Shown: positions 333 to 60,541, counted from the stretch's first letter. The stretch: DNA of 64,000 bases from Deltaproteobacteria bacterium (GCA_013151915.1 JAADHJ010000033.1:37642-101641), one strand, 5' to 3'. A program made the numbers and translations. Notes: generated by a model from the sequence alone, not told the origin.

Positions 333-365
333 CTCAAACCTCCGTCATCTCCATTATTGATAGTG

Positions 366-515
366 CCGTGAAAAACCCACCCATGGCTTTTTACTCAACG
401 GAAAGCGAAAAATGTCATTTTCACTTTCCTCACAAATCAAAGACTTGCCCTGCAAGTCTTTGATTTGCGCACCCATCAGGGGGCACGTTGATGACTATTT
501 GCGAAGTCATCATTG
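366..515 (-). repeat. Family A multi-hairpin intergenic repeat, long-form variant (extended 16-bp hairpin 3), reverse orientation
   Basis: Read as reverse complement it shares TTGATGACT..GCGAAGTCATCAA, CAAATCAAAGACTTGCAGGGCAAGTCTTTGATTTG, GGAAAGTGAAAATGACATTTTTCGCTTTCC and GTAAAAAGCCATGG with the copies at 7751, 36250, 53086 and 59763. Confidence 0.8.
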
Positions 516-2668: not shown

Positions 2669-4810
2669 TTGGAAAAGGCCGCAAATGATCTCCTGACAGG
2701 ATTGGGCCAGCATGCCCTTCTCGTCTACGTATTCATCTTTATCGTAGCTTTTTCGGAATCCTTTGCCTTCGTCGGCCTCTTTGTCCCCGGCGCAGTCTTC
2801 GCGGTTACCGCCGGATTCCTCGCCGCGAGGGGATTGTTCGACTTCCAGGCCCTTGCCCTGGCCGGGGCGGCGGGCGCCATTCTGGCGGACCTCGCCAGTT
2901 ATTACCTCGCACGCATCTATGGATCAAGAATCACCGGGGGGAAACTCTACATAAGATATCAACCATACCTGGAAAGGGGAAACAGGTTCATAGAGAAGCA
3001 CGGCGGCAAGAGTGTCTTTCTGGGGCGGTTTGTAGGTTTTATTCGCCCGGTGGTTCCCTTCCTGGCCGGCCTGCTGAGCATGAATCCGCTGAAGTTCGCG
3101 ATCTACGCCACAGTGAGCGGCATCCTGTGGGCCTACACCTACATAGGCGCCGGATACCTGTTCGGGGAAAGTTGGAAGGTGGTGGAGGCTTGGACGGGCA
3201 AACTAAGCATTCTGTTCCTTCTGATCATATTCACTCTTTATTTCGCAAGGCATATTGCCAAGGTGATGGGGAGAAAGTTGGCTGGTGCCGGCGGTTTTCT
3301 GGGATCTATTTTCGATAGCGTTGTTGTCTCGCTTTCGGAAAATCCGTATATTTCCGGTCTCTTGGCCCGTCACCCTTCACTGGTCGGGTTTTTCAAACAG
3401 CGATTCGACAAAAACAGCGCTTCGGGCCTTCTCCTTACCACCGGCTTCCTGGTTACGTCCTTTTTCTCCTACCTCTTTCTCGCGGTGGTTGAGGACGTCG
3501 TTTTCCACGACCCACTGACCAGTCTTGACGCGACCATCTTTTACGCCCTGCAGGGCGTCCATTCACGGTTCGCCGACGAGTTCTTCGTCTTCATAACGAC
3601 CATGGCGAGTTCGGTGCCGGTCATAATCTCCTTTCTGCTGATTCTTGGCATCCTGGCTGTCAACCGTAAAAGGTTGGAGGCATTCTTCTTCGTTCTCAAC
3701 TTTGTCGGAGGGATGGTCTTTCTTGTGGCCATGAAGTACCTTTTACAGAGGCCGCGTCCCGCGGCTATTTACCACTTTTTCACCGAAACAACCCCATCCT
3801 TCCCAAGCGGGCATACCTTCATGTCCATAACGGTCCTCGGTCTTGCGCTCTATTACCTGGTCCGTTACGTGAGGACCGGCGGCGCAAGGACCTCCGCAAT
3901 CTTTGCCTATTTCCTTTTCATCTTCCTCGTGGGGCTCAGCCGTATTTACCTGGGGGTACATTGGTTCAGCGACGTACTGGGCGCCGGCTTCGCAGGATTC
4001 ATATGGATCAGCATAATGGTAACCTCCTATGAGTATGTTATCAAGCGCAACGGTCCCAGGGACAGGGCTGGCATGGGGTCGAAGTGGGTCCCCGCGGCAG
4101 CAGCGCTCCTGGCTGTATTGGGCGTTGTGGGAAATGTATCCTACTCCATCCGTAAGACCGGTCCGATTGTCAGAAACGTCCAGGTGGTCTCACCGGCGAT
4201 CAGGGAGTTTTCCGGTGACATGGGGCAGGTTATCAGGAAGGAGATCTCTCCTTTTACCGAGACCCTTCTTGGGAACCGGGCGGCGCCGATCCAGGTGGTT
4301 TTCTCAGGGGACCGGAAAAGGATCGAGGGGCTCCTCAGGGATTCCGGATTCGTCCGGAAAAATGAGATGCGTGTCAGGGATCTTTTCGGCTATGTCATCA
4401 TGACCCTGGAACAACGGATCCAGGATCCATTGGCCGCCGTCCTTTACTACTATCATAACCGTTCCCAGGACGGTACATGGATGAGGTCCGGAGGGGATGG
4501 TCCGTACCCTGCAATGGTCGTCCGTATGTGGGATACCCGGACCATGGTAAACGGGCGTCCTGTCACGGTGGCGACGGTGGATGTTGAGAAGGGCCTCTTT
4601 CGCCCCTTTCCGTGGCTAGAACTTCCCATGCCTGTCTGTGAGGTCTCCCTGCCGAACGTCAGGAAGAGGTTTCGAATCCGCCTTGAGGGAAAAAAGCTCG
4701 ACATTGAGTCCTTGAAAATTACGGATGCCGGGGTGGGAAGAAACATCCTCCACCAGCAATACTTCTGGGATGGTGAGATCCTTCTGGTGAGGCCTGTCCC
4801 GAACCTCTGA
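2669..4810 (+). CDS. DedA (VTT/SNARE-associated) domain fused to PAP2 phosphatase domain, plus ~280-aa C-terminal domain of unknown function
   Basis: N-terminal LLVYVFIFIVAFSESFAFVGLFVPG...FLGRFVGFIRPVVPFLAG is DedA-like. Residues ~350-470 carry the PAP2 signature KxxxxxxRP (LLQRPRPAA), PSGH (SFPSGHT) and SRxxxxxHxxxD (SRIYLGVHWFSDV). The ORF table start is a TTG; the true start is uncertain. Confidence 0.75.
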   Translation: MEKAANDLLTGLGQHALLVYVFIFIVAFSESFAFVGLFVPGAVFAVTAGFLAARGLFDFQALALAGAAGAILADLASYYLARIYGSRITGGKLYIRYQPYLERGNRFIEKHGGKSVFLGRFVGFIRPVVPFLAGLLSMNPLKFAIYATVSGILWAYTYIGAGYLFGESWKVVEAWTGKLSILFLLIIFTLYFARHIAKVMGRKLAGAGGFLGSIFDSVVVSLSENPYISGLLARHPSLVGFFKQRFDKNSASGLLLTTGFLVTSFFSYLFLAVVEDVVFHDPLTSLDATIFYALQGVHSRFADEFFVFITTMASSVPVIISFLLILGILAVNRKRLEAFFFVLNFVGGMVFLVAMKYLLQRPRPAAIYHFFTETTPSFPSGHTFMSITVLGLALYYLVRYVRTGGARTSAIFAYFLFIFLVGLSRIYLGVHWFSDVLGAGFAGFIWISIMVTSYEYVIKRNGPRDRAGMGSKWVPAAAALLAVLGVVGNVSYSIRKTGPIVRNVQVVSPAIREFSGDMGQVIRKEISPFTETLLGNRAAPIQVVFSGDRKRIEGLLRDSGFVRKNEMRVRDLFGYVIMTLEQRIQDPLAAVLYYYHNRSQDGTWMRSGGDGPYPAMVVRMWDTRTMVNGRPVTVATVDVEKGLFRPFPWLELPMPVCEVSLPNVRKRFRIRLEGKKLDIESLKITDAGVGRNILHQQYFWDGEILLVRPVPNL

Positions 4811-5194: not shown

Positions 5195-5638
5195 ATGAAC
5201 GAGTATCAGAGCAATGGAGCGGAACCGGACGAGAGCCGGGAGATGAATCCCGAAATAATGGAACCGGGGACCGAACCGGAAGAAGTCGGCGGGCCTGAAA
5301 GCTGGGCCTGTCTCGTACTCAACGACGGAGGACGCCTGGAACTTTCCGGTGACGAGGTTGTTATCGGTCGGACGGACCCCCTGGAGGGTATTCATCCCGA
5401 TCTGGATCTTGGTGTCCGCGGTGGCCTGGAAATGGGAGTTTCACGGCGTCACGCTACGATTTTCCGGGAGGACGAAAAGTTCTCGCTTGAGGACCTTGGC
5501 AGCACCAACGGGACTATCATCAATCGCGAGAGGGTCCAGGCCGGCGACAGGGTGACGCTCAACGAGGGGGACGTTATTTACCTGGGACGGTTCAAGGCCG
5601 TCTTCCAGACACCCCACAACAGCGGAGGTTCACAATGA
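5195..5638 (+). CDS. FHA domain protein (acidic N-terminus)
   Basis: 147 aa. FHA core VVIGRTDP...GVSRRHATIFREDEKFSLEDLGSTNGTIINRERV. Its stop overlaps the next gene's start (ATGA). Confidence 0.7.
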   Translation: MNEYQSNGAEPDESREMNPEIMEPGTEPEEVGGPESWACLVLNDGGRLELSGDEVVIGRTDPLEGIHPDLDLGVRGGLEMGVSRRHATIFREDEKFSLEDLGSTNGTIINRERVQAGDRVTLNEGDVIYLGRFKAVFQTPHNSGGSQ

Positions 5639-7755
5639 AGGCCATAGGAAACAGGGTTGCGAGAATGTCGTTCGTCGGTTGCAGCGCAGCCATCTGCGCC
5701 GCTTTGCCGCTGGGGTTGATCCTGTCCCTCTCGCCCGGCGCATCATGGCTGACCATTCTCTTCGGTTTCATCGTGGGAGGTGTCCTCGCCGGTTTTCTCA
5801 CCGCATTCGATCTTCTGTGGACACAGCGGAAGGGCGAACTGGTCAATCGCGTTCTGCGTGCAGCGGCTGCAGGATCCCTTGGCGGCGCATTGGGAGCATG
5901 GGTGGGTCAGATCCTGTTTCGCCTGTGGGGAAATCACCTCGTGGCCGGCCTTTCCGCGGGGATTATTCTCCCTCTGTCCTTCGGAACAGCAGTCGGTTGG
6001 GGGGTGACCGGCCTTGGAATCGGTCTGGCTATCACGCTCCCCTTCCAATCCACCAGGCCCCGCTGGCTCATCGCCGCCAGTGGAGGGACCGTAGGGGGAG
6101 CGGTGGGAGGTCTGTTGATGCAGTTTCTACAGCCGCTGATGGGCCCTGCGAGCCTGATTTTCGGCCTGCTGGCGTTTGGCGCGGCTGTTGGATTCGGCAT
6201 TTCGTGGGCGGAAATGGCTCTTTCCTCCCTACGGCTTCAGGTGCTTGAAGGTCCCGGACGTGGATCGGAATTTACTCTGGGGAAAAACACCCTCATCGGC
6301 AGTGAGGGGAAATGCACCGTCCGCCTGATCGAAGCCGGAGTGGCACCCAGGCATGCCCGTATTTTCCGTAAGGGGAGCAGCCTTTTCTTCGAGGACCTCG
6401 GTTCTTCGGCAGGGAGCGTTTTGAACGATCGCAAGGTGGCGGGAACCGCAGCCGGTGTATCCCACGGCGACCTGATCAGCATCGGAAAAACCCTTCTTCG
6501 GGTCAATGCACCCGGCCGGAAAACAGGCCTGACATCCACCATCTCCATGGCAGCCCTTGCGGCCCTGTGCATCATGGGCCTTTTCCCGGTTCCCTCGGCC
6601 GCCTCCGCACAGGATGCCTCTCAACCCGGCCAGGTGGTCGCCCGCATTACCCAGGTGGACACATCCAGGTACCCTGTCGTGGACCTTTACGCAATACTTC
6701 CCGGCGATCTGAGGCCGGGAAATGTCCATGGCCTGACCGTATTGGAGGGCAAAACGGAAACATCTCTCCTCGAGGTGAGAGATCTGAAAAAGGGCGCCAG
6801 GGATGCCCCTCTCTCCATCTCCATCGTACTCGATACGAGCACGAGCATGAAAGGCCGGAAACTGACCGAGGCCAAAGACGCCGTATACGGCTTTTCCAGG
6901 AGCATCCCCGCGGAGGCCAGGATCAACCTCATATCATTTGACGATGCCGTCCATATCATCTCCACAGGACTTCCCGCGAGTCTCATCTATAAAAACATCG
7001 CTGATCTCTCCGCTTCAGGACACACGGCCCTGTTCGACGGGATCGTCACGGGATCCAACCTGATCCGGAACGAAGCCGGAAGAAAGGTGGTCGTGACGCT
7101 GACCGACGGTATGGCCAACAGGGGTGAAAGCTCCATGAAAGATGCGGTAGCCGCCGCAGAAAAAGCCGGGGTGAGCCTTCTTTTCGTGGGACTTGGCCCG
7201 GATGTCCGACGAGAGAGATTGGGCGGCATGGCGGCCATGACAGGTGGAAGGGCCGTATTTACCTCGGACCCATCCGAGCTTTCAACCCTGTTTGAGACCT
7301 ACGCAACGGAGCTTTCCAGGGAGGTACTTATTCGATACCGTTCAAGTATGCCTGACAATCCTGTTGTCCCTGTGACATTGCGCCTTACGTCCGGGAACAC
7401 TGAATCAATCCTCAACGGCCGATACCTGTCGCCCAGGGCCTCTTTCATGGGGATCTCCGGGGCTACGTCCCCAATCCTCTTTCTACTTGGTCTGCTGGGG
7501 CCGGCAGGGCTTTTCGCCGCGGGGCGCCTTACCTCCTATAACATGGCGAAAGACCCGTTCCTCCTTGTGGAGGGTTCCTCCAAGGCGACCCGTCTGATTA
7601 CCAGGGTCCTTTCCAACGAGGGGATGACGGTTCCGATGTCCATCGGGGGCAAGACTATCCTCGTCAACAACCAACCGGTAAAGGGAACCCGTACTCTAAG
7701 GAGCGGCGAGGCCCTGACCTGGGGCGACACAACCGTCCTGTTCAGAAAAGGTTGA
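5635..7755 (+). CDS. Polytopic membrane protein with FHA domain, von Willebrand factor A (MIDAS) domain and C-terminal FHA-like domain
   Basis: 706 aa. About 200 aa of glycine-rich TM helices. FHA: EFTLGKNTLIGSEG...RHARIFRKGSSLFFEDLGSSAGSVLNDRKV. VWA with MIDAS DTSTSM...SGHTALFDGI...TLTDGMAN. Another TM, then C-terminal LLVEGSSKATRLITRV...GGKTILVNNQPV. RBS GGAGGT upstream. Confidence 0.75.
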   Translation: MKAIGNRVARMSFVGCSAAICAALPLGLILSLSPGASWLTILFGFIVGGVLAGFLTAFDLLWTQRKGELVNRVLRAAAAGSLGGALGAWVGQILFRLWGNHLVAGLSAGIILPLSFGTAVGWGVTGLGIGLAITLPFQSTRPRWLIAASGGTVGGAVGGLLMQFLQPLMGPASLIFGLLAFGAAVGFGISWAEMALSSLRLQVLEGPGRGSEFTLGKNTLIGSEGKCTVRLIEAGVAPRHARIFRKGSSLFFEDLGSSAGSVLNDRKVAGTAAGVSHGDLISIGKTLLRVNAPGRKTGLTSTISMAALAALCIMGLFPVPSAASAQDASQPGQVVARITQVDTSRYPVVDLYAILPGDLRPGNVHGLTVLEGKTETSLLEVRDLKKGARDAPLSISIVLDTSTSMKGRKLTEAKDAVYGFSRSIPAEARINLISFDDAVHIISTGLPASLIYKNIADLSASGHTALFDGIVTGSNLIRNEAGRKVVVTLTDGMANRGESSMKDAVAAAEKAGVSLLFVGLGPDVRRERLGGMAAMTGGRAVFTSDPSELSTLFETYATELSREVLIRYRSSMPDNPVVPVTLRLTSGNTESILNGRYLSPRASFMGISGATSPILFLLGLLGPAGLFAAGRLTSYNMAKDPFLLVEGSSKATRLITRVLSNEGMTVPMSIGGKTILVNNQPVKGTRTLRSGEALTWGDTTVLFRKG

Positions 7756-7922
7756 TGACTTCGCAAAAAGTCATCAACGCACCCATTTGGGGCGCCCAAA
7801 TCGAAGATTTGCGAGGAAAGTGAAAATGACACTTTTCGCTTTCCGTGGAGTAAAAAGTCAGCAATGGACTTTTTACGACCCTATCAACCTTGATGACTTC
7901 GCAAAAAGTCATCAACGCACCT
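7751..7922 (+). repeat. Family A multi-hairpin intergenic repeat (short form) with hairpin 1 duplicated at its 3' end
   Basis: GTTGATGACTTCGCAAAAAGTCATCAACGCAC occurs at 7751-7782 and again at 7889-7920, flanking hairpins 2-5. The element overlaps the stop codon (7753-7755) of the upstream gene. Confidence 0.85.
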
Positions 7923-11299: not shown

Positions 11300-11385
11300 T
11301 TTTTGTTCAGATTATACTCTGTAAAACCCTCATTTAAAATCCTGTGGAGCAGCCTGCGAGGGGCTGCACTGTGGTAAAATAAGGG
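11300..11385 (-). repeat. Family B repeat, partial copy in reverse orientation
   Basis: The reverse complement reads ccacagtgcagcccctcgcaggctgctccacaggattttaaatgagggttttacag, matching the 5' half of the B copies at 22296 and 28487. Confidence 0.55.
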
Positions 11386-13106: not shown

Positions 13107-13209
13107 GCTTGACCTCCTTCCACAATAAACAACACCTTCCACTCGAATCGTTTTCGGGCGGGCTGACCCCTTTCCCACATTTTCAGATTACACGCTCATA
13201 TGGGGGGAA

Positions 13210-13268
13210 ATCAAGGGCCGCGCAAATCGAAGATTTGTGAGGAAAGCGAAAAGTGGTTAACTTTCCCT
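13210..13268 (+). repeat. Family A repeat fragment (hairpins 3-4 only)
   Basis: gcgcaaatcgaagatttgtgaggaaagcgaaaagtggttaactttccc. Confidence 0.6.
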
Positions 13269-15416
13269 TGCGATCCTCCAGCAGTTGTGCACCCCCGGGT
13301 TTCTGGCGAAGTCCCTGGGGATTGTCCGGGCGGTAATGTCCTCGACAATGAGGCCGGAAAGGGAAGCCAAGTCCATTTCAAAACCCCGGCGATTATTGGA
13401 AAAGATGAGTATACCGCTCCCGGACAGGAGCTTCGCCGTCCCTGTTATAAGACCGACATGGTCCCTCTGGACGTCGAAGGTGCCTTCCATCCCCTTGGAG
13501 GCCGAAAAAGTGGGTGGGTCGAGGAAGATCAGATCGTAGCGGGCTTTCGCAGCCTCGATCCATTTCATGCAGTCAGCCTTGATGAAACGGTGGTTTTTCC
13601 CCTTCAGGCCGTTCAATGCCATGTTTTTCCGGGCCCAATCGGTATAGGTGTTGGACATGTCCACAGAGGTGGTAAAGGAAGCGCCGCCTGCGGCGGCGTG
13701 GACGGTGGCCGCACCTGTGTAGGCAAAAAGGTTCAAAAAGTTTTTCCCCCGGGCCATCTCCCCGACCATCTTCCGCGTCAGTCGATGGTCCAGGAAAAGC
13801 CCCGTGTCGAGGTAGTCCTCCAGGTTGACGAGAAACTTCAGCCCCCCTTCGGTCACCTCGTGGAAACGACCTGATTCGTGCAGCTTTTCATACTGGCTCC
13901 GGCCCCTTTGGCGCTCCCTGACTTTAAGAAAAATCTTTTCCGCGGGGATCTTCAGCACCTCCGGGATGATCGACATCACCTGCCGGAGCCGGGCCTCGGC
14001 ACCTGCCGCCTCTACAGTGGCCGGCGCCCGGTACTCCTGGACGTGAACCAGATCACCATAAACGTCCACTGCGACATTGTACTCCGGAATATCCGCTCCG
14101 TAGAGACGGTAGCAGGTAATCCCTTCCTCCTCCGCCCACTTGCCGATGGTACGAATATTTTTACGAAGGCGGTTGGCAAACATCCCGCCGCCGGCTTCGC
14201 GGGATGCGGGGGTACCCGGCGTCTTGGGCCACCCACCGGCCGTCAGTGTCTCCTTGAAAAAACGGCTTTTCTTTATGGTAAAGTGGATGAGCTTGCACTT
14301 GATGGCGCCATTATACAGGGTGTGGGTCCTGACGGCTCTTATTCCCATCTCTTTGCCCAGGTCGGGGTTGCCTGTAAAAATGGATGCGTTCCAACCCTCA
14401 AAATTTTCCCTGAGTGTTTTCCCCAGCCTTTGATAAAGCCCTTTTAATTTATCAACTTCGCCCTGCCTTTCCCCGTAGGGCGGGTTGACCGCCACAAGGC
14501 CAAAATTTCCTTCCCCTGGAGAACGGAGCGAGCCTATATCCTGGCTCTGAAAAGTTATTTTCCCATCAAGCCCCGCCCGCTTCAGGTTTTCCCGGGCTGA
14601 TTTCAGGATTCTGCCGTCCACGTCATACCCCGTGATTACCGGCAAATGGATAAACCCGTCCTTTCTCCGGTAGCGGGCCTCCACCTGTAAATGTGTCCAG
14701 ACCCTGGGGTCGAACCCCTTCCAGCCCATGAACCCGAAGTAGGGGCGTAAAAGTCCCGGGGCGATGTCCGCGGCCATGAGGGCCGCCTCGATGGGCAGGG
14801 TTCCGGCACCGCACATCGGGTCAATAAACGGTCGTCCTTCGGCAGCCATCCCGGGCCAACCGGCCCTGGCGAGAATGGCGGCGGCCAGGTTCTCCTTCAG
14901 GGGGGCGATCCCCTTATCCTGACGGTATCCGCGCTTATGGAGACTCTCTCCGGAAAGATCGAGGCTGATGGTTGCCTGGTTCCTGTGGATGCGGGCATTT
15001 ATGCGCACATCGGGATTTTTGACCTGTACGGACGGACGCCGGCCAACCTGGTCCCGGAAGCGGTCAACCACGGCGTCCTTGATCTTCAGGGCCGCGTACC
15101 GGGAGTGTGAAATTTCCGAACCGGAGACGGTCGTGTCTACGGCCAGGGTGTTGGCTGGGGAAAGGTGATCTTCCCAGGGGATGGACCGGACACCATCATA
15201 AAGCTCCTCGGGGGTCGCTGCCGGAAAAACAGCCAGGGGCATCAGGACACGATTGGCAAACCTCGACCACAGGCAGATCCGGAGGGCCGTCTCCACAACA
15301 CCATCGCAGGACACCCCGGAGCGGGTCTCCTTTATGTTGGAGGCTTCCATGCCACGCAGTTCGCCGGCAAGAAGCGATTCGATACCCATGGGACATGTGA
15401 TAAAAAAAGAATGCAT
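13257..15416 (-). CDS. rlmL: 23S rRNA (guanine2445-N2 / guanine2069-N7) methyltransferase RlmKL (THUMP + two SAM-MTase domains)
   Basis: 719 aa. N-terminal THUMP MHSFFITCPMGIESLLAGELRGM...ETALRICLWSRFANRVL. N6-MTase motif VNPPYGER. C-terminal second methyltransferase domain. Confidence 0.8.
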   Translation of the reverse strand: MHSFFITCPMGIESLLAGELRGMEASNIKETRSGVSCDGVVETALRICLWSRFANRVLMPLAVFPAATPEELYDGVRSIPWEDHLSPANTLAVDTTVSGSEISHSRYAALKIKDAVVDRFRDQVGRRPSVQVKNPDVRINARIHRNQATISLDLSGESLHKRGYRQDKGIAPLKENLAAAILARAGWPGMAAEGRPFIDPMCGAGTLPIEAALMAADIAPGLLRPYFGFMGWKGFDPRVWTHLQVEARYRRKDGFIHLPVITGYDVDGRILKSARENLKRAGLDGKITFQSQDIGSLRSPGEGNFGLVAVNPPYGERQGEVDKLKGLYQRLGKTLRENFEGWNASIFTGNPDLGKEMGIRAVRTHTLYNGAIKCKLIHFTIKKSRFFKETLTAGGWPKTPGTPASREAGGGMFANRLRKNIRTIGKWAEEEGITCYRLYGADIPEYNVAVDVYGDLVHVQEYRAPATVEAAGAEARLRQVMSIIPEVLKIPAEKIFLKVRERQRGRSQYEKLHESGRFHEVTEGGLKFLVNLEDYLDTGLFLDHRLTRKMVGEMARGKNFLNLFAYTGAATVHAAAGGASFTTSVDMSNTYTDWARKNMALNGLKGKNHRFIKADCMKWIEAAKARYDLIFLDPPTFSASKGMEGTFDVQRDHVGLITGTAKLLSGSGILIFSNNRRGFEMDLASLSGLIVEDITARTIPRDFARNPGVHNCWRIARES

Positions 15417-18220: not shown

Positions 18221-18291
18221 ATCCCTTGACCTCCTCGTATTTTTCGGTTCACCCTGGAAATAAGTACCTGAATGAAGCCCAGATTGATGGA

Positions 18292-18380
18292 AAAGTTAAT
18301 TTAACACAGGGTACACGGGGTTACATAGAGTTGCACAGGGTTTATTCAAAACAATTCTTTTGACCCTGGTTTACTCCGCG
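18292..18380 (-). repeat. Family B repeat, partial copy in reverse orientation
   Basis: ttaacacagggtacacggggtta is the reverse complement of taaccccgtgtaccctgtgttaa in the B copy at 22296. Confidence 0.5.
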
Positions 18381-22204: not shown

Positions 22205-22295
22205 CGGTTAATGCGTACCCTTCCCTTCCGCCTGTCATTGCGAGCCGAACCTAATGCGAAGCAATCCCGAAGAATTTCGCAGGCTGCGCCAGGAT
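22205..22295 (+). repeat. Family C short repeat (taatgcgtacc...ctgtcattgcgagcc...gcaatc)
   Basis: Shares about 30 conserved nt with 26472-26545; directly abuts family B copy B1. Confidence 0.4.
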
Positions 22296-22450
22296 CAAAA
22301 GCTTTTAACACAGTACAGCCCCTCACAGGCTGCTCCACAGGGTTTTAAAAGAGGGTTTTACAAGGAAGATCTTAAACCCATAAGGTCCTGGTTTAGCCCG
22401 TTAAGGATTTTGATTTAACCCCGTGTACCCTGTGTTAAACAAGTTTTTCC
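22296..22450 (+). repeat. Family B ~155-bp intergenic repeat, full copy
   Basis: caaaagcttttaacac..gcagcccctcacaggctgc(hairpin)tccacagggtttt...ttaaccccgtgtaccctgtgttaaac; about 85% identical to the copy at 28487-28625. Confidence 0.8.
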
Positions 22451-27133: not shown

Positions 27134-27383
27134 TTTATCTCTCCATTTAACATGGTGGCGGGATAGCCCCAGGATGCACGCTCCGCGCACATCCTGCTTG
27201 ATGGACTTCTTGCAACCCTATTATCCTATCTTTCCTGCCCTTTTACGGCAAGGCCCTAAAGCCGGCAAAAAACAGCAGCTGAGATGGATTGTCAATGGAG
27301 ATGAGTGGTTCCCTATGAACGGTAAATATTATAGAGTCAGCGTATGGGTGTTCCGGGCATGAAGGTAAGGACGGGGGGCATGG

Positions 27384-28427: not shown

Positions 28428-28450
28428 GGTTGCTGACTTCGCAAAAAGTC
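28428..28450 (+). repeat. Family A fragment (hairpin 1 half only)
   Basis: ggttgctgacttcgcaaaaagtc matches the first half of the family A hairpin 1; it directly precedes family B copy B2. Confidence 0.4.
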
Positions 28451-28486
28451 CCGCCGGCAGGTTTGCCCCAAGACGGATCTCAAGGT

Positions 28487-28625
28487 CAAAAGCTTTTAAC
28501 ACGGCGCAGCCCCTCACAGGCTGCCCCACAGGGTTTTTAAAGAGGGTTTTACTGAAAAGATCTAACCATAAGATCCTGGTTTAACCCGCCAGGGATTTGG
28601 ATTTAACCCTGTGTTAAATTTGCTT
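28487..28625 (+). repeat. Family B intergenic repeat, full copy
   Basis: caaaagcttttaacacggcgcagcccctcacaggctgccccacagggtttttaaagagggtttt...atttaaccctgtgttaaa. Confidence 0.8.
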
Positions 28626-28697
28626 TTTCACCAACCTGGACTTCATTCAGAATTTCATTTTCAGGATGAACAGCTTTTTAAGAAGTTATTCGGGGGG

Positions 28698-36215: not shown

Positions 36216-36249
36216 AACCTTCCCTTAGTATCCAGACCCTTAATTATTG

Positions 36250-36408
36250 ACAGGGTCGTAAAAAGTCCATTCGTGGCTTTTTGCTCCACGGAAAGCGAAA
36301 AGTGCCATTTTCTCTTTCCTCACAAATCAACAACTTGCCCTGCAAGTTTTTGATTTGCACATCCTTCAATGGGCGCGTTGATGACTTTTTCGAAGTCATC
36401 AATATTCC
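36250..36408 (-). repeat. Family A multi-hairpin repeat, long-form variant, reverse orientation
   Basis: Reverse complement: ttgatgacttcgaaaaagtcatcaa...caaatcaaaaacttgcagggcaagttgttgatttg...ggaaagagaaaatggcacttttcgctttcc...gcaaaaagccacgaatggactttttacgaccc. Confidence 0.8.
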
Positions 36409-37397
36409 ATGGCGCCGGACCGCTTGATTTCTCCGACCTTTTCAAGGAGGAAAAAGGCGTCCGTATTCTCAGGATTGAGCTTAATAGCATCGTTAAGCAG
36501 CTCCTCGGCTTTGTCCAGCATACCAAGATGAACGTAGCTGTTGCCCAGGTGATACAGGGCGCTGGAATCCATTGGATCGAGTTCCTTAACCCTGTTGAAA
36601 CTGGCCGCCGCATCCTCATGGGCCCCTTTCCTTGCCTGAGCCACACCCAGATGATAATAGGCAGCTGTAAATTGCGGGGACAGCGCCAGCGCCTGCTCGT
36701 ATGCATTTATGGCATCCTGCATGTTGCCCTTGTGGAAGTAGACCTGCCCCAGCCAGTAGTAGGCCATGACGTACCCGGGGGAGATTTCCACCACTTTCCT
36801 GAGGGCATCCTCGGCCTCCTGCAGCATTCCTTTCTGGAAATAAACGGTCCCCAACACGTACATGGACCTTGCGAAGGTGGGTGATATTTCGAGGGATCGC
36901 TGCAGTTCCTCCACCGCGTCGTCGAGCTTGGCATTCTTCTGGTGAAGGAGGGCCAGACGGTAGTGAATCTGGGCGGTGTCGGGGATCATCTTTCTCACCC
37001 GGTTGAAATGAAACTCCGAGTCGGGAAGAAGACCCATGGCGTAGCAGGTCATTCCAAGGCGATAGTGGACCGCGGGAGATGTGGGATTTGCGGCCTCAGC
37101 CTTCTTGAAACACTCCAGGGCGGCCGAGAGCATCCCCTTGTCGTAGTAGGCGACCCCCATGTAGTATCGGGTCATCTGAAAATCGGGTACCAGTTCGAGG
37201 GTTTCCTCCCATCGCTTCAGGGCCTCGTCAAAGTGCCCCTGGTGGTAAAGGGAGCTTCCCTCGCGGTAGAGCCGCTCGGCCTTCTCCTGGTTGGACAGGG
37301 CCTCCTGGTCATCGACCGTCGCTTCGAGCTTGTTGCCGCACTCTTTACAGTAGCGGCTGTCCTCCGGGATCAACAGATTGCATGCCGGGCAGATCAT
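36399..37397 (-). CDS. Zinc-ribbon + TPR-repeat protein
   Basis: N-terminal MICPACNLLIPEDSRYCKECGNKL. At least 8 TPR repeats (AxxxYxxGxxxxxxGxxxEAxxxxxxALELxP pattern). Confidence 0.75.
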   Translation of the reverse strand: MICPACNLLIPEDSRYCKECGNKLEATVDDQEALSNQEKAERLYREGSSLYHQGHFDEALKRWEETLELVPDFQMTRYYMGVAYYDKGMLSAALECFKKAEAANPTSPAVHYRLGMTCYAMGLLPDSEFHFNRVRKMIPDTAQIHYRLALLHQKNAKLDDAVEELQRSLEISPTFARSMYVLGTVYFQKGMLQEAEDALRKVVEISPGYVMAYYWLGQVYFHKGNMQDAINAYEQALALSPQFTAAYYHLGVAQARKGAHEDAAASFNRVKELDPMDSSALYHLGNSYVHLGMLDKAEELLNDAIKLNPENTDAFFLLEKVGEIKRSGAMEY

Positions 37398-40209: not shown

Positions 40210-40252
40210 GTTGATAGGGTCGTAAAAAATCCATTAATGGCTTTTTATTCCT
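40210..40252 (-). repeat. Family A fragment: solo hairpin 5
   Basis: gggtcgtaaaaaatccattaatggctttttattcc; overlaps the stop codon of the NuoF-GltD fusion gene. Confidence 0.5.
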
Positions 40253-43200
40253 CGTTATCACATCGGAGACAGCGACGTGCTTCCTTCATGGCCGTCTCCA
40301 CGGTAAAACCCAGATCGACCTCCGCAAAACCGAGAAGCCTTTTTTCCATCTCCATGGTCGGCATTTCAGGCCTTGCAAGATGCATGTCTTCTTCGGTGAG
40401 CTCAAGCGGCTTAATGGAATCAATGTTAGGCATGGTGATCCTGTATTGGGGGACCACATCCTCCCCGTTGAGATAGAGTTGCATGTGGGCTGCCGCCCTC
40501 TTTCCCGCAGCAATGGCGTCTATGACCATCCATGGGCCTGTTACAACATCCCCGCCGGCGAACACACCCTCAACGTTGGTCATCTGGGTAAAAGGATGGG
40601 CCTCAAGGGTGTTCCACTTGGTGATGTCCAATCCCTGGGACTTTTCTATGAAGGAGAGGTCCGGCTTTCCGCTGATGGCCACGATCAGGTTATCCAGTTC
40701 CATGTCGAACTCGGAACCCTCTATTGGAACCGGCCGGCGTCTGCCGGATGAATCCGGCTCACCGAGTTCCATCCTGATGCACTGCACTCCCGACATTTTT
40801 CCACCGGAGGTGAGGATTTTTACCGGTGCAACCAACTGAACCAACTCAGCGCCCTCTTTAAGCGCCTCCTCGATCTCCATATCGTCGGCGGGCATTTCCT
40901 TCTTGGTCCTGCGGTAAAGGATGGTCACCTCGGACCCCAATCGCCGCGCGATCCTGGAAGCGTCGATGGCCGTGTTTCCACCCCCGACAACCCCAACCTT
41001 CTTTCCGAGGAGTACCTTCTCACCGAGGTTGACCCTCCGCAGGAATGAAAGGCTCTCGTACACACCTTCAGCATTCTCACCCGGAATTCCCATTTTCAGA
41101 TCCACGTGGGCCCCGGTGGCGATGAACACCGCCTCATGATCCATGCGGATCCGGTCGAAACTGATGGTCTCGCCGATGCGGGTGTTGAGATAAAACTCGA
41201 CACCCATCCTCTCGATAGCGTGGATCTCATGTTTCAGGGTATCCCTGGGCAGACGGTATTCCGGAATTCCAAGGGAAAGCATTCCTCCGGCAATCGGCTG
41301 GGCCTCGAAGATGACCGGGGAGTAATCGTCCAGGGCAAGATAATGGGCCGCTGTAAGACCGGCCGGGCCCCCTCCGATGATCGCCACCTTTTTGCCTTTT
41401 CCGGAGACCTTCCGGACGTTGATCCTGTATCCGCCGGAAGACTCCTCCTTGGCCGCGAAGTCCGCAGCTACACGCTTCATGTTCCGGATACTGATGGGCC
41501 TGTCCAGCTCACCACGGCGGCACTTCCCCTCACAAGGATGGTGGCAGACCCGGCCGCAAACGGCTGGAAGCGGGTTGGTAAGGCGGATAAGTTCCAGTGA
41601 CTCGGTAAACTTCCCCTCCCCTATGAGCGTGAGATAGGCCGGCACGTCGGTCTCGATGGGGCAGACGTGCTGGCACGGGGAGGAGATGATCGGTTTGCAT
41701 ACCACCGCGGGGCATCTCTTGTTGATAATGTGAGCCTCGTATTCCTGGCGGAAATACCGGAGGGTAGAGAGGACGGGGTTGGGAGCCGTCTGCCCAAGGC
41801 CGCAGAGAGATGCGGCCTTGATCTCCTTGCCCAGATCCTCGAGGTTCTTCATGTCGTCCATGGTACCCTCTCCCGCCGTGATGCGTTCGAGGATTCCCAG
41901 CATGGTCTTGGTTCCCATGCGGCACGGTACGCACTTTCCACAGGACTCCGCCGTGGTAAACGAGAGGAAAAACCTGGCCACATCCACCATGCAGGTCCGC
42001 TCGTCCATTACGACTACTCCGCCGGAACCCATCATGGCGCCGGCCTGGATGAGAGAGTCGTAGTCGATGGGGGTATCGATGACCTCCGAGGGCAGGCATC
42101 CGCCTGACGGGCCGCCAAGCTGGGCGGCCTTGTACTTCTTGCCGCCCACAATCCCACCGCCGATGTCGTAGATTATCTCCTTGAGCTGGGTCCCTGCCGG
42201 AACCTCGATGAGCCCGGTGTTCTGGATCTTCCCTGTGAGGGCGAAAACCTTTGTGCCTTTAGTGCCTTTCGTTCCCACCGCGGCATAGCTATCGGCGCCA
42301 TTGAGGATGATGGGCGGCACGTTGGCAAAGGTCTCGACGTTGTTTATGTTCGATGGCTTGGCCCACAGACCCTTATGGGCCGGGAAAGGGGGTCTGGATC
42401 TGGGCATGCCCCGTCTGCCCTCGATAGAGGCCATCAGGGCGGTCTCCTCTCCGCAGACAAAGGCGCCGGCGCCCTCTTTTATCCTCAGGGTAAAGGAAAA
42501 ATCTGAGCCCAGAATTTTCTCACCCAGGTAGTTTTTTTCTTCGGCCTGGGCTATGGCGATCTTCAGACGTTCAATGGCCAGTGGATACTCCGCGCGGCAG
42601 TAGATATAGCCATACCGGGCTCCTATGGCGTAGGCGGCAATGATCATCCCCTCTATTACGGCATGAGGATCCCCCTCCAGGACGCTCCGGTCCATGAACG
42701 CGCCTGGGTCTCCCTCATCGGCGTTGCAGATAAGATATTTGGGGTCCCCCGCGGCGTTGGCGCAGAACTCCCATTTCAGCCCGGTGGGAAACCCTCCCCC
42801 GCCCCTTCCCCTGAGGCCGGATCTTTTCACGACCTCCCTGACGATTGTGGGGGACATTGTATTGATGGCCTTCTCCGCCGCCTTGTATCCATCGGTCTCG
42901 AGGTAGTCCTCCAGTTTCACGGGGTCAATGAAGCCGCAACGCCTGAGGACGACCCGCTTCTGTTTCTTGAAGACGGGCATCTCCTCATAGGTTGGTATCC
43001 CCTCATACGGCTTGCCCCCCTTCGGAACGATCTGGCCGATAGCATAATCGGTGAGAGGCTTTCCGTTTACCAGATGTTCCTTGAGGATTTCCGGGACCAT
43101 TGCGGGTTCGACCTTTGCATAGGTAACACGGGCCCGTCCGGGAAGGGATACGTCAAGCAGCACCTCTTGATAGCACATCCCGATACAGCCGGTTTTCAGA

Positions 43201-43325
43201 ATAGGCACCTGCAAGGAGATGTCCTTCAGTTGATGCTCCACCTCCTGAAGGACTCCCTTGGCCCCCGAAGCAAGGCCGCAGGTCCCCATGCCGATTACGA
43301 TCAATTTATCGCTGTCGTATCCCAT
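40245..43325 (-). CDS. Fusion protein: thioredoxin-like [2Fe-2S] domain + NuoF-like (FMN/NADH, 51 kDa) domain + GltD-like NAD(P)H:FAD oxidoreductase domain
   Basis: 1026 aa. NuoF block GLRGRGGGGFPTGLKWEF...ICNADEGDPGAF...GAGAFVCGEETAL...ESCGKCVPCR. Ferredoxin-like Cys clusters CPAVVCKPIISSPCQHVCP and AVCGRVCHHPCEGKC. GltD-like dinucleotide folds KKVAIIGGGPAGLTAAHYL and KKVGVVGGGNTAIDASR. Confidence 0.8.
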   Translation of the reverse strand: MGYDSDKLIVIGMGTCGLASGAKGVLQEVEHQLKDISLQVPILKTGCIGMCYQEVLLDVSLPGRARVTYAKVEPAMVPEILKEHLVNGKPLTDYAIGQIVPKGGKPYEGIPTYEEMPVFKKQKRVVLRRCGFIDPVKLEDYLETDGYKAAEKAINTMSPTIVREVVKRSGLRGRGGGGFPTGLKWEFCANAAGDPKYLICNADEGDPGAFMDRSVLEGDPHAVIEGMIIAAYAIGARYGYIYCRAEYPLAIERLKIAIAQAEEKNYLGEKILGSDFSFTLRIKEGAGAFVCGEETALMASIEGRRGMPRSRPPFPAHKGLWAKPSNINNVETFANVPPIILNGADSYAAVGTKGTKGTKVFALTGKIQNTGLIEVPAGTQLKEIIYDIGGGIVGGKKYKAAQLGGPSGGCLPSEVIDTPIDYDSLIQAGAMMGSGGVVVMDERTCMVDVARFFLSFTTAESCGKCVPCRMGTKTMLGILERITAGEGTMDDMKNLEDLGKEIKAASLCGLGQTAPNPVLSTLRYFRQEYEAHIINKRCPAVVCKPIISSPCQHVCPIETDVPAYLTLIGEGKFTESLELIRLTNPLPAVCGRVCHHPCEGKCRRGELDRPISIRNMKRVAADFAAKEESSGGYRINVRKVSGKGKKVAIIGGGPAGLTAAHYLALDDYSPVIFEAQPIAGGMLSLGIPEYRLPRDTLKHEIHAIERMGVEFYLNTRIGETISFDRIRMDHEAVFIATGAHVDLKMGIPGENAEGVYESLSFLRRVNLGEKVLLGKKVGVVGGGNTAIDASRIARRLGSEVTILYRRTKKEMPADDMEIEEALKEGAELVQLVAPVKILTSGGKMSGVQCIRMELGEPDSSGRRRPVPIEGSEFDMELDNLIVAISGKPDLSFIEKSQGLDITKWNTLEAHPFTQMTNVEGVFAGGDVVTGPWMVIDAIAAGKRAAAHMQLYLNGEDVVPQYRITMPNIDSIKPLELTEEDMHLARPEMPTMEMEKRLLGFAEVDLGFTVETAMKEARRCLRCDNEE

Positions 43326-53032: not shown

Positions 53033-53085
53033 TCGACCCTTGCCGGTGTCATAGGCTGAATTCCGGAAAACTGTCGGTGGTCGGG

Positions 53086-53222
53086 TATTGATGACTTCGC
53101 AAGAAGTCATCAATATGCCCTTTGAGGGGCGCTCAAATCGAAGATTTGTGAGGAAAGTGAAAATGACACTTTTCGCTTTCCGTGAAGTAAAAAGCCATGT
53201 ATGGACTTTTTACGACACTATC
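53086..53222 (+). repeat. Family A multi-hairpin intergenic repeat (short form)
   Basis: ttgatgacttcgcaagaagtcatcaa / gcccTTTGAggggcgc / caaatcgaagatttg / ggaaagtgaaaatgacacttttcgctttcc / gtaaaaagccatgtatggactttttac. Confidence 0.85.
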
Positions 53223-53408
53223 ATATTGACAATCTGAAAATCACTCTGCTAGGTTGTGGCCTGATTTTCCGGGAGTCCCTGATGGAACTTTTTGTCCTGA
53301 TTTTCGACCGAGTTGAACTCCCGGATGAGGTTCTGTCCTATTTCGTCGAAACGAGGGCCGGCGGCGCGACGGTAGTCGACAGTGCGGGTACGATGAACCC
53401 GCAAACAG

Positions 53409-53458
53409 TCCATCAAGCAGGATGTGCGCTAAGCGTACATCCTGGGGTGGGGGTGGAA
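53409..53458 (+). promoter_or_regulatory. Motif D copy 1: CCATCAAGCAGGATGTGCGCTAAGCGTACATCC (10-bp-stem hairpin) + GGGGTGGGGGTGGAA, 8 nt upstream of atpZ-like gene
   Basis: About 85% identical to the second copy at 54074-54123; both sit immediately upstream of atp F0 genes. Confidence 0.35.
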
Positions 53459-54073: not shown

Positions 54074-54123
54074 CCCATCAAGCAGGATGTATGCGAAACG
54101 TGCATTCCGGGGTGGGGATGGAA
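54074..54123 (+). promoter_or_regulatory. Motif D copy 2 upstream of atpB
   Basis: cccatcaagcaggatgtatgcgaaacgtgcattccggggtggggatggaa. Confidence 0.35.
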
Positions 54124-57719: not shown

Positions 57720-59129
57720 GTGAGCCTGTCAGAGGACGTGCCGTTGGACTTCAAGCGACCGGTGGGGAAGATGTTTAAAGGGAGGAGAAAACTTCGTTTT
57801 TACGAGGTGCTTCTCCTCGTTCTCATCGCCCTTATTATCGGCGCATGGAGCCTCCTGGAGATCACACGATCGCCCCTTTTCTGCGGCAACGCCTGTCATA
57901 TCATGCGTCCTTACTACGAGGATTGGAAGAAATCCACCCACAACAAAGTACCATGCGTTGAGTGTCACAACCCGCCCCCGACCGCCGGACAGTTGACACC
58001 CGATTGGGGCGCCATTAAACAGGTAGCCGGCTACATGACCCGCTCCTACAGTGAAAGGCTCAGGGCTAATGTCAGCGATGCGGGTTGTCTGAAAGAGGGA
58101 TGCCACTCAAAACGCCTTCTTAACGGGAAGGTTTCCTTCCGCGAGGACATCCTTTTCGACCATCGTCCCCACCTTGGACAGCTGCGAAGGGGTAAGATCC
58201 TCCGCTGTGCCACCTGTCATTCCCAGATTGTCATGGGCAACCATGTCACTGTTGATGAAAACACCTGTTTCATATGCCATTTCAAAGACCGGGATGAAAG
58301 TCAATCCACTGCCAGATGCCGCCTTTGCCACGGCACGACACAGGAACACACCTTGTCCATGAACAGGAACTTCGACCACACCGATTACATGGCGAGAGGT
58401 GTCCGATGCACCAGGTGTCATCCCGACATCATCAGGGGCAACGGCGATGTATCGGAGGACCGATGCATTGGATGCCATAAACGGCGCATGAAGATCGACA
58501 CGTCGCAGCCGGAGATGGCGCTGCACCGAAAGCACGTCACGGACCATAATGTCAAGTGTGAGGATTGCCATGATCTTATCAGGCATTCCATCCCCAAGGG
58601 TTCCGAACTGGGACGGCTGGACTGTTCATCCTGCCATGAGAACAAGCACGGAGCTATTTTATCCCTTTACAGGGGACTGGGCGCCGACGGGATTGATCCG
58701 ATGCCCTCACCAATGTACATCAGCCAGGTAGGCTGCAACGGTTGTCACATCCCCTCCCAGGACACCACGGGTTACGGTACGGCAGTCAGCGGCCCCTCCA
58801 CGAAGGACATCTCCGCCGCCTGTGATTCATGTCACGGCGATGGCTACGGAGTTCTGGTCACAAAGTGGAAAAAAGAGCTGCTAGAGAAGATTGAGTCGGT
58901 CGACGTAAAACTCAAGGAAGCCAAGAAAGCGATCGCCCGGTCGCAGGCGGGCTCCGGGAATATCACCAGGGCCAGAAATATCCTGAAAAAGAGCCGGCAC
59001 AATTTTCTGTTCATACGGGCAAGTGTGCCCGTTCACAATCCCGATTATGCCATAACCGTCCTGGACAAGACCGTGCAGGATTTGGAAAAGGCCATAACCC
59101 TTGTGAGGCAGGTGAACGATGGTGTTTAA
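57720..59129 (+). CDS. Multihaem c-type cytochrome with N-terminal NapC/NrfH-like membrane anchor (10 CxxCH + 2 CxnCH)
   Basis: TM VLLLVLIALIIGAWSLL. Motifs CGNACH, CVECH, CLKEGCH, CATCH, CFICH, CRLCH, CTRCH, CIGCH, CEDCH, CSSCH, CNGCH, CDSCH. Confidence 0.8.
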   Translation: MSLSEDVPLDFKRPVGKMFKGRRKLRFYEVLLLVLIALIIGAWSLLEITRSPLFCGNACHIMRPYYEDWKKSTHNKVPCVECHNPPPTAGQLTPDWGAIKQVAGYMTRSYSERLRANVSDAGCLKEGCHSKRLLNGKVSFREDILFDHRPHLGQLRRGKILRCATCHSQIVMGNHVTVDENTCFICHFKDRDESQSTARCRLCHGTTQEHTLSMNRNFDHTDYMARGVRCTRCHPDIIRGNGDVSEDRCIGCHKRRMKIDTSQPEMALHRKHVTDHNVKCEDCHDLIRHSIPKGSELGRLDCSSCHENKHGAILSLYRGLGADGIDPMPSPMYISQVGCNGCHIPSQDTTGYGTAVSGPSTKDISAACDSCHGDGYGVLVTKWKKELLEKIESVDVKLKEAKKAIARSQAGSGNITRARNILKKSRHNFLFIRASVPVHNPDYAITVLDKTVQDLEKAITLVRQVNDGV

Positions 59130-59763
59130 AAAGGTAAGCAGAATCAAGATACCTGATGCGACCATCAGGCGGTTATCCCTGTATGATCGCTGTCTGGAGG
59201 AACTCAGGAAATCGGGCAGCAAGATTGTATCGTCATCCGACATTGCCCGTAAGTGCGGGACCAATCCAGCCCAGATCAGGAAGGATTTCGCCTATTTCGG
59301 GGAGTTCGGGGTAAGAGGGGTGGGATATTACGTGGAAAACCTCCAGATGGACATCAAAATGGCGCTTGGGATAGATCGCCCGTGGATGTGCGCCCTTGTA
59401 GGGGCGGGGAATCTGGGCTTCGCCCTCCTGGGAACCGATTCACTGGCCAAGCGAGGCTTCAGAATATCGGTTATCTTTGAAAAGGACCCGATTCTGGTGG
59501 AGATGGGTTCCTTTCAGGACATTCCACTTTTCGGCATGGACATGATGCCGCAGGTGATATCGGACCTCGGGATTCACATCGGCCTTATCGCCGTCAATCC
59601 CGAGACGGCGTTGAAGGTCGCCCACGACCTCATTGACGCCGGTGTAAAAGGAATCCTGAACTTCACTCCTGCAACCCTCAAGGTTCCGCCCGGGATTGTC
59701 CTGAAAAACATGGACTTCGCCATTGACCTGGAAGGAATCGCTTTCCAGTTGAGCAATCAGTAG
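59119..59763 (+). CDS. rex: Redox-sensing transcriptional repressor Rex
   Basis: MVFKKVSRIKIPDATIRRLSLYDRCLEELRKSG...SSSDIARKCGTNPAQIRKDFAYFGEFGVRGVGYYV + Rossmann CALVGAGNLGFALL. Confidence 0.9.
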   Translation: MVFKKVSRIKIPDATIRRLSLYDRCLEELRKSGSKIVSSSDIARKCGTNPAQIRKDFAYFGEFGVRGVGYYVENLQMDIKMALGIDRPWMCALVGAGNLGFALLGTDSLAKRGFRISVIFEKDPILVEMGSFQDIPLFGMDMMPQVISDLGIHIGLIAVNPETALKVAHDLIDAGVKGILNFTPATLKVPPGIVLKNMDFAIDLEGIAFQLSNQ

Positions 59764-59897
59764 TGATGACTTCGCAAAAAGTCATCAACGCGCCCACTGA
59801 AGGGCGCCCAAATCGAAGATTTGTGAGGAAAGTGAAAATGACACTTTTCGCTTTCCGTGGAGTAAAAAGCCATTAAGGGACTTTTTACGACCCTATA
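59763..59897 (+). repeat. Family A multi-hairpin intergenic repeat (short form), cleanest copy; begins at rex stop codon
   Basis: Five hairpins: TGATGACTTcgcaaaaAGTCATCA; GCGCCCactgaaGGGCGC; CAAATCgaaGATTTG; GGAAAGTGAAAAtgacaCTTTTCGCTTTCC; GTAAAAAGccattaagggaCTTTTTAC. Confidence 0.9.
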
Positions 59898-59950
59898 AAT
59901 AGAGATATACCGGCGGGGCGCGAAACGGAAGGGCGGGAGAGAACAACCGG

Positions 59951-60541
59951 ATGAAGAAACTCGAGGATCTGATCAGGCAAAGGGGTCGCGAGAGTGCTCA
60001 GACCCAGCAGGAATACTGCGAATCGGCCGCCGGAAAAATAGATTACGCCGCCCGCAGCCTGACCAGAATTCTCAGTGAGGGCGGGAAGATCCTTGTGGCC
60101 GGAAACGGAGGCTCCGCGGCGGATGCTCAGCACTTCTCCGCCGAGCTTGTCGGCCGCTTCCTCATGGAAAGGCATCCTCTGGCCTGTCTGGCGCTTACCA
60201 CAAACTCCTCCGTCCTCACCTCCATCGCAAACGACTATTCCTTCGAACAGGTATTCAGCAAACAGGTGGCGGCCCTGGGCCGGGAAAACGACGCACTGGT
60301 GGCCATATCCACCAGTGGCGCGTCCCCCAACATCCTCCGTGCTCTGGAAAGCGCCAACACCCGATCCATGCTGACCGTGGGACTTACAGGGGCCGACTGC
60401 GACCGGATGGCCCCTCTATGCGACATCTGCCTCAATGTGGATAACACATCCACCCCCCGCATCCAGGAGGTCCACCACCTGATCCTCCATATCATTGCCG
60501 AACTTATTGAGATCCGGCTTTTCGCCCGGCAGGAGGCCTGA
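59951..60541 (+). CDS. gmhA: Phosphoheptose (sedoheptulose-7-phosphate) isomerase, SIS domain
   Basis: ILVAGNGGSAADAQHFSAELVGRF...ISTSGASPNILRALESAN. Confidence 0.85.
   Translation: MKKLEDLIRQRGRESAQTQQEYCESAAGKIDYAARSLTRILSEGGKILVAGNGGSAADAQHFSAELVGRFLMERHPLACLALTTNSSVLTSIANDYSFEQVFSKQVAALGRENDALVAISTSGASPNILRALESANTRSMLTVGLTGADCDRMAPLCDICLNVDNTSTPRIQEVHHLILHIIAELIEIRLFARQEA

Follow-up and report, generated by a model that had tools for sequence, protein, structure and literature searches.

Bacterial MITEs (Correia/NEMIS of Neisseria, ERIC, RUP, Chunjie and Nezha) have been reviewed in PMC10969869, and the repeat described here, which we call family A, is like them in being small, non-coding, multi-copy and mostly intergenic, in having terminal inverted repeats together with direct repeats of the target that are seen in younger copies and decay with age, in having transcripts that are predicted to fold stably, and in that some insertions lie within operons (PMC10969869). 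In two respects the resemblance ends. Correia and RUP duplicate TA, whereas family A duplicates 4-5 bp (A-N3-T), and for this reason a Correia/NEMIS-like MITE was discarded as its identity. Furthermore, a typical MITE is drawn as one long hairpin made from two terminal repeats, whereas family A has five separate local hairpins whose pairing is maintained by compensatory substitutions in diverged subfamilies.

For the modular build of family A and for its nesting, the nearest analogy that we can draw is with the pneumococcal BOX/RUP/SPRITE elements. BOX consists of boxA, boxB and boxC modules and occurs in BOX/RUP/SPRITE clusters, and family A has in common with these elements its modular hairpin units, the gain and loss of whole modules, the tendency to cluster, the nesting of elements in one another and the fact that no mobilising enzyme has been identified (PMC3049150; PMC10969869). 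Nevertheless, BOX and family A have no sequence similarity, the ends, target duplication and empty sites of family A are clearly defined, and the hosts differ: Firmicutes in the case of BOX, and uncultured 'Deltaproteobacteria'-labelled MAGs plus Gammaproteobacteria in the case of family A.

Elements of the IS3, IS481, IS21, Mu and Tn7 types have TG...CA termini, fixed duplications of 3-5 bp and junctions in which the ends abut with few bases between them. Family A shares with the IS3-type DDE elements the TG...CA termini, a duplication of the 3-5 bp class and the abutted-end junctions, but has no transposase gene. REP sequences, on the other hand, are RAYT-linked palindromes of 20-40 nt that have a conserved GTAG/CGTC head and neither terminal inverted repeats nor target duplication. 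REP/BIME elements, for which roles in mRNA stability have been proposed, resemble family A as intergenic palindromes that form mosaic arrays, whereas terminal inverted repeats and target duplication are found in family A only.

Copies in the window and in other genomes

The window, i.e. the whole 64-kb stretch of DNA that was analysed, contains five full copies and four fragments of family A (Table 1). The sequence-only reading had reported at least five full and three partial copies of a five-hairpin repeat on both strands, and these were found again within a few bases of where it had placed them. A repeat search of the window returned the plus-strand family at 7748-7884, 53085-53221 and 59760-59896, the minus-strand pair at 353-500 and 36243-36390, and fragments at 13214, 28430 and 40211. 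With a profile made from long-form copies the five full copies were matched at E = 1e-36 to 1e-55, values on which a chance origin of the repeats can be regarded as ruled out. A covariance model, which had been proposed as a check, gave the same copies 137-160 bits and showed that loci in the MAGs of relatives carry copies as well.

Table 1. Family A in the window: full copies and fragments, followed by the parts of the focal copy (H1 to H5, hairpins in 5' to 3' order)
Feature	Position	Strand	Remarks
Focal full copy, short form, 135 nt, TG...CA	59764..59898	+	exact boundaries
Full copy, short form, 135 nt	53089..53223	+	3' of class-III aminotransferase gene
Full copy, short form, 134 nt	7753..7886	+	exact TG...CA boundaries
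Full copy, long form, 154 nt	36248..36401	-	between TPR gene and nuoH
Full copy, long form, 155 nt	358..512	-	exact TG...CA boundaries
Fragment: second left end, H1 and start of H2	7891..7921	+	head-to-tail with copy 7753..7886, 4-nt spacer ACCT
Fragment: part of H2, short-form H3, 5' part of H4	13194..13269	+	
Fragment: left end (TTGCTGACTTCGCAAAAAGTC)	28430..28450	+	
Fragment: H5 and 3' tail	40210..40254	-	in 66-nt spacer between NuoF-fusion gene and NuoG-like gene
H1, TGATGACTT/AAGTCATCA	59764..59787	+	5' arm and loop = left terminal inverted repeat (TGATGACTTCGCAAAAAGTC)
H2, GCGCCC/GGGCGC	59790..59807	+	G+C-rich 6-bp stem
H3, short form, CAAATC/GATTTG	59809..59823	+	16-bp stem in long-form copies
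H4, GGAAAGTGAAAA/TTTTCGCTTTCC	59827..59856	+	12-bp stem with U.G wobble
H5, GTAAAAAGCC/GGACTTTTTAC	59862..59888	+	bulged A; 3' arm = inner part of right terminal inverted repeat
3' tail GACCCTATAA (consensus GACCCTATCA)	59889..59898	+	outer part of right terminal inverted repeat, CA end

The division into a short and a long form, also made in the sequence-only reading, stands, but its treatment of the long copies as variants does not: most copies in related genomes are of the long form (155 nt, H3 stem of 16 bp), which is ancestral, and the short form is the product of a 20-nt deletion of the inner H3 stem. Since this deletion is common to the three plus-strand window copies and the fragment at 13210, these make up a local subfamily that multiplied after the deletion took place.

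Other small repeats are also present in the window. A second, unrelated intergenic repeat of ~80 nt (...AAAGCTTTTAACAC...CAGCCCCTCACAGGCTG...GGGTTTTA...) is located at 22290-22372, 28481-28563 and, inverted, 11320-11379, and its family is also found at 18247-18326, 22413-22450 and 28606-28671, with a companion sub-repeat and with copies in both orientations; 30 nt separate one of its copies from the preceding family A fragment at 28430. A third, small repeat, consisting of a hairpin CAGGATGTGCGC...GCGTACATCCTG followed by GGGGTGGGG, is located at 53410-53458, 54075-54123 and 27167-27213 (inverted), and one of its copies follows the family A copy at 53089-53223 at a distance of ~190 nt.

In the genome collection, the H4 core (GAGGAAAG-N-GAAAA-N6-TTTTCGCTTTCC) was found in 49 stretches belonging to about a dozen MAGs, the richest of which are Pseudomonadota bacterium CSMAG_1715, Proteobacteria bacterium SZUA-178, N04_metabat2_bin.36, PFL40 and binchicken_co275_205. 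Taken together, these 49 loci and the window have ~70 full or partial copies, as judged by the profile and the covariance model. Across the nuo region the window and N04_metabat2_bin.36 are about 66-76% identical at the DNA level; in the nuo locus of that MAG (L023) there are runs of N at 1182-1282 and ~4492-4591, exactly at the spacers where family A is expected. In locus L059 a mini-derivative of ~50 nt (~2414-2470) is found directly 3' of a full copy; it combines a left-end-like TGATAATTTTG with an H5-like hairpin, and its tail ends in GGTCA.

Two related kinds of element were observed. One is a sibling that has no H1 and that begins with TATTACCATCGCGCCC... and ends with ...GCGACAATAACA. 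The other is found in loci from Gammaproteobacteria MAGs (L012, L022, L029, L037, L006 and L030), each of which has one variant copy that forms the same five hairpins and does not differ in its H4 stem, yet has other ends (TTAAGGAAaCTCTGA...TCAGAGnTTCCTTAA). Indeed, H4 (GAGGAAAGCGAAAA-N6-TTTTCGCTTTCC) is identical in the 'Deltaproteobacteria'-type MAGs and in the Gammaproteobacteria. A profile of the gamma variants matched family A over H3-H5 at about E = 1e-15, which indicates that this core is homologous in the two, while H1, H2 and the termini have diverged.

Five hairpins and their pairing

Folded as a single sequence, the plus strand of the focal copy gives exactly five hairpins (-52.4 kcal/mol, compared with -28.2 in shuffles; z = -7.2), and the opposite strand folds nearly as well (z = -6.8). 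The consensus fold of the alignment also yields all five, so the hairpins that had been listed earlier were recovered by both routes. H4 is the block whose sequence is most conserved across the superfamily, and the G·U wobble that had been noted in it is present as U.G in 25 of 38 copies. The copies start with TGATGACTTCGCAAAAAGTC and finish with GACTTTTTACGACCCTATCA, and thus have TG...CA termini. Their terminal inverted repeats are ~21 nt long and conserved from copy to copy. They are imperfect: at 16 of 21 positions TGATGACTTCGCAAAAAGTC agrees with TGATAGGGTCGTAAAAAGTC, the right end in reverse complement.

Among 38 close copies, 97.5% of cells pair, and double compensatory changes were observed in 14 pairs, as opposed to 2.8 ± 1.3 in shuffles; this count was reached in none of 500 shuffles, and slid controls gave 9 at most. 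In the superfamily alignment of 68 forward-strand matches, which takes in the sibling family and the six gammaproteobacterial variants and which leans towards structure, having been fitted to the model, 96.3% of cells pair and 39 of the 52 pairs have double changes (16.2 ± 2.4 in shuffles; at most 23 in slid controls). Covariation is strong in H1, H2, H3 and H5. H4 is the exception, its sequence being nearly invariant, although here the search pattern itself required H4. When the gamma variants are folded singly, the same five hairpins are obtained from largely different sequences. Purifying selection on the internal secondary structure of family A is thus measurable, both between subfamilies and between classes, and the earlier claim of selection on pairing is borne out both by the close copies and by the superfamily.

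The pairing may also have a strand preference. There are 82 G.U cells as against 20 A.C cells, but only 21 against 16 when counted by column, and the excess is driven by about four high-frequency wobble positions, all of which are G.U in the plus sense. The plus strand is the more stable one in 32 of the 38 copies, with a mean of -68.0 versus -63.7 kcal/mol.

Family A, at 134-155 nt, is a non-coding element, as had been claimed: the ORFs that overlap copy 358-512 are all short. Within H4 (59827-59843 in the window) there is a Shine-Dalgarno-like GAGG with an ATG 9 nt further on, which is probably coincidental. A coding role for this frame (GAGG-N9-ATG) was considered and rejected, because the frame, as read from the sequence, differs between copies, stopping after 12 codons in one window copy and after 24 in another, and because the ATG is missing from the sibling and gamma variants. 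An IHF site, which in functional form is a feature of Correia/NEMIS-like MITEs, was rejected as well and is kept as a lead only: the short form has lost the H3 arm AAATCAATGACTTG, which we take to fit the IHF consensus, by deletion, and the gamma variants have not retained it.

No Rfam family matched anywhere in the window at the gathering threshold, and when one window copy and one gamma variant were searched at E up to 10, only chance-level matches far below threshold were obtained. Neither of the two results that would have overturned the sequence-only reading, an Rfam match or stems that do not covary, was therefore seen. A distant blastn search of a plasmid collection gave no match to family A, and a full-text literature search with the H4 sequence returned only unrelated primer or promoter strings. 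In viral contigs the H4 pattern was not found, and the left-end pattern had eight matches, all of them coincidental, in CDS for ...FDDFAKSPYY..., and without a match to the model. Going by Rfam, plasmids, viral contigs and the searchable literature, family A is previously uncatalogued.

Insertion, nesting and loss

Examination of the copy boundaries, which had been suggested as a way to look for target-site duplications, revealed exact duplications of 4-5 bp in 8 of 33 copies, where fewer than one is expected. Four copies have an exact 5-bp duplication (0.06 expected) and four an exact 4-bp duplication (0.69 expected), the expected counts having been computed from mismatched flank pairs; in the other 25 it is not exact, and in most copies the duplication has decayed. 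Examples are ACAAT, ATAGT, GTAGT, GATAT, AGGT, AATT and AAAT. The target resembles A-N3-T in an AT-rich patch, and the outer flanks weakly mimic the joined ends of the element itself.

Two empty sites were found. At the first, locus L045 (CSMAG_1715) has a 155-nt copy between ATTGT and ATTGT, whereas the orthologous stretch of L020 (SZUA-178; 86% identity over 2 kb) contains ATTGT only once and is without the element; L045 minus the element and minus one ATTGT aligns colinearly with L020. At the second, the window copy at 36248-36401 reads CATGG-AATAT/TG...CA/ATAAT-TAAGG (slashes at the ends of the element), whereas L058, in which NuoH is 93% identical and the TPR gene is 23 nt from nuoH, reads CATGG-AATAT-TAAGG. 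The orthologous site is filled in L059, L060 and L062. At both empty sites the duplicated pentamer is present once, and the two sites contradict a fixed orthologous placement of every copy in all relatives.

Copies are also found joined to, and inserted in, one another. There are five head-to-tail junctions, and in every one the spacer is 4 nt (7886/7891 in the window). Within its H3 loop, family A has repeatedly taken up the sibling element, at one and the same point in L042 (2253-2536), L027 (1-283) and L021 (5770-5985), and the composite of the two may itself be a mobile unit. Loss is seen as well: some variants (L004, L034) are without a whole hairpin, and mosaic arrays of H4-H5-tail units and module-deletion variants were observed. 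In L004 (~205-546) and L040 (~1938-2355), whose flanks are ~93% identical, one ancestral insertion has decayed differently, H5 having been lost in one while ~220 nt of unrelated sequence replaces H3-H4 in the other. Copy number varies sharply among relatives, there being no family A copy at all in L058 (15 kb) or L063 (21 kb, CP070682.1). Family A shows cut-and-insert behaviour with a 4-5 bp staggered cut of the target, self-nesting and lineage-specific expansion.

It is therefore very probable that family A is a MITE, i.e. a DNA transposon of 155 bp that is neither coding nor autonomous and that has a deletion derivative of 135 bp in this genome. Small size, absence of coding capacity, terminal inverted repeats, target-site duplication, dispersed copies and presence/absence polymorphism, which are defining features of MITEs according to PMC10969869, are all found in it, and its copies have come to populate intergenic regions throughout an uncultured 'Deltaproteobacteria' lineage. 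Of the three identities that the sequence-only reading had left side by side, the MITE-like one is upheld by the inverted repeats, the duplications and the two empty sites, while the REP/BIME-like element and the structured small RNA, as a fixed gene, are not supported.

A REP/BIME or REPIN-type element, namely extragenic palindromes spread by a RAYT (Y1 HUH) transposase, would share with family A the intergenic position of the copies, the palindromic modules, the mosaic H4-H5-tail arrays and the module-deletion variants. Such an identity is nonetheless very unlikely in view of the target-site duplications and the two clean empty sites bounded by duplicated pentamers, the TG...CA terminal inverted repeats, the palindromes that, on our reading of the sequence, have no GTAG or CGTC head, and a unit of 155 nt instead of 20-40 nt. 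Similarly, one may consider a palindrome-associated element that derives from IS200/IS605 and transposes in single-stranded form, which would account for the hairpins and for strand-specific G.T wobbles. Each end of family A has a subterminal hairpin, its wobble pairs favour one strand, and the left flank is often T/TGAT and the right end TCA/A, which recall the tetra-/pentanucleotide cleavage sites of IS200/IS605. However, members of that family insert 3' of a fixed tetra- or pentanucleotide, make no target-site duplication and have no terminal inverted repeats, whereas here exact 5-bp duplications are observed that are single-copy at the empty sites and that vary from site to site (ATTGT, AATAT, GTAGT and others), so that this origin, too, is highly improbable.

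Returning to the MITE, the about 425 kb of window and fetched loci yielded no autonomous parent that is bounded by its ends. The candidates for such a parent, pairs of ends 0.2-6 kb apart, were rejected, as they enclose ordinary genes and no transposases. Because the ends are TG...CA, the target cut is staggered by 4-5 bp and the junctions have abutted ends, we infer, with roughly even confidence, that a retroviral-integrase-type DDE transposase (IS3, IS481 or IS21-like) may act on the element in trans and move it. The 4-nt abutted-end junctions would fit circle or dimer junctions, or alternatively insertion beside a resident end.

Gene ends, operons and the persistence of the hairpins

The window copies have a close relation to stop codons. 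The focal copy begins directly 3' of the TAG stop (59761-59763) of a Rex-like gene (59119-59763), and the start of a SIS-domain gene is located downstream of it, at 59951. In copy 7753..7886 the first bases, TGA (7753-7755), are the stop codon of an FHA/VWA gene (5635-7755); in copy 36248-36401 the TGA of the element (36399-36401) replaces the native TAA stop of the TPR gene, whose ORF is 332 aa both in the window and in L058; and an OEP efflux ORF (476-1813, minus strand) extends 37 nt (476-512) into copy 358-512. In all, the stop of the upstream ORF is supplied, abutted or entered by at least three of the five copies, and insertion at a stop codon thus rewrites the end of a gene while leaving the protein unchanged or nearly so. 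The genome is about 55% G+C, and the operon spacers and stop codons that are hit are AT-rich islands within it.

The nuo region has two peculiarities of its own. The 332-aa TPR gene (36399-37397) is inserted in the nuo operon; for the orthologues in L058, L059 and L063 there is no precomputed Pfam match, and its best database homologue is only 32% identical, such homologues being of no use for the identification of empty sites. In addition, the NuoF-like gene (40245-43325, 1026 aa) is fused to a pyridine-nucleotide-disulphide oxidoreductase domain, whereas in the relative L058 NuoF is unfused and 604 aa long.

Could the copies instead be independent small-RNA genes, i.e. trans-acting sRNAs that were multiplied by duplication? 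Stable folds and covariation would be expected of them, but the copies match no Rfam family, and promoter and terminator scans gave nothing above shuffles for the short form and, for the long form, only weak terminator-like matches in H3. Moreover, copies abut or overlap stop codons and lie inside operons, with the next start codon 20-50 nt away, and the duplications and inverted repeats point to transposition. We regard this as the least probable of the explanations, with hardly any chance of being correct.

A more serious contender is that family A acts in cis as a structured RNA device, for instance by stabilising mRNA, insulating an operon or marking a processing site; this function, and not transposition, would then account for the conserved hairpins, and mobility would be a means of delivery only. 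In its favour are the strong covariation in H1, H2, H3 and H5, the high-frequency wobbles that are all G.U in the plus sense, the better folding of the plus strand in 32 of 38 copies, the homologous H3-H5 core of lineages whose ends have diverged, and the fact that each of the five window copies has the orientation of its upstream gene. By crude ORF calls, however, ~23 copies are co-oriented with the upstream gene and 11 are opposite, so that about a third are antisense to their neighbour genes, and a strict RNA-sense orientation was rejected on this ratio of only about 2:1. Nor is there a promoter or terminator signal, the genes next to the window copies are ordinary and unrelated to one another, and hairpins that are near-palindromic will fold on both strands. 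Co-directional, convergent and divergent gene contexts are found in a proportion of about 36:6:6, and a ratio of this kind is expected for bacterial gene pairs generally. Overall, an RNA device of this kind is possible, but rather unlikely.

Although family A is most probably a MITE, this label alone does not explain why five hairpins are conserved, since DDE transposition is not known to require five internal compensated hairpins. Our leading idea, which is a tentative one, is tolerance at the RNA level. If landing sites are mostly very short operon spacers (such as that between the TPR gene and nuoH) and stop codons, only compactly folded, non-polar inserts might be tolerated there, and the hairpins would persist; a tight fold in the read-through transcript would avoid polarity and might also stabilise the mRNA. 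The orientation bias is weak, though, and lends little weight to a role confined to the RNA level. Another possibility, which could hold as well, is that the palindromes are binding sites, for the transposase or for a host protein, that are needed for movement. We also consider, as an improbable extension, that the H3-H4-H5 core is the functional module itself, be it a structured RNA or a group of palindromes bound by protein, which is carried between different terminal repeats depending on the lineage; the MITE would then serve to distribute among operons a device that acts in cis, for example an insulator against polarity or for mRNA stability, or else an RNA/DNA scaffold required by its own transposase.

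As a kind of element family A is ordinary, and what is unusual about it is the deep, covariation-supported conservation of five local hairpins. It provides a well-bounded example of a MITE, with exact ends, a duplication, a target preference and empty sites, from uncultured bacteria of sediments, vents and seeps. Assemblies break at its copies, from which MAG annotation also acquires spurious ORFs or altered gene ends, and a covariance model for the family would help such annotation. Bacterial MITEs have mostly been described by their terminal repeats only, which makes family A suited to asking why some of them keep an elaborate fold, and the finding would matter more if the conserved core has a function of its own.
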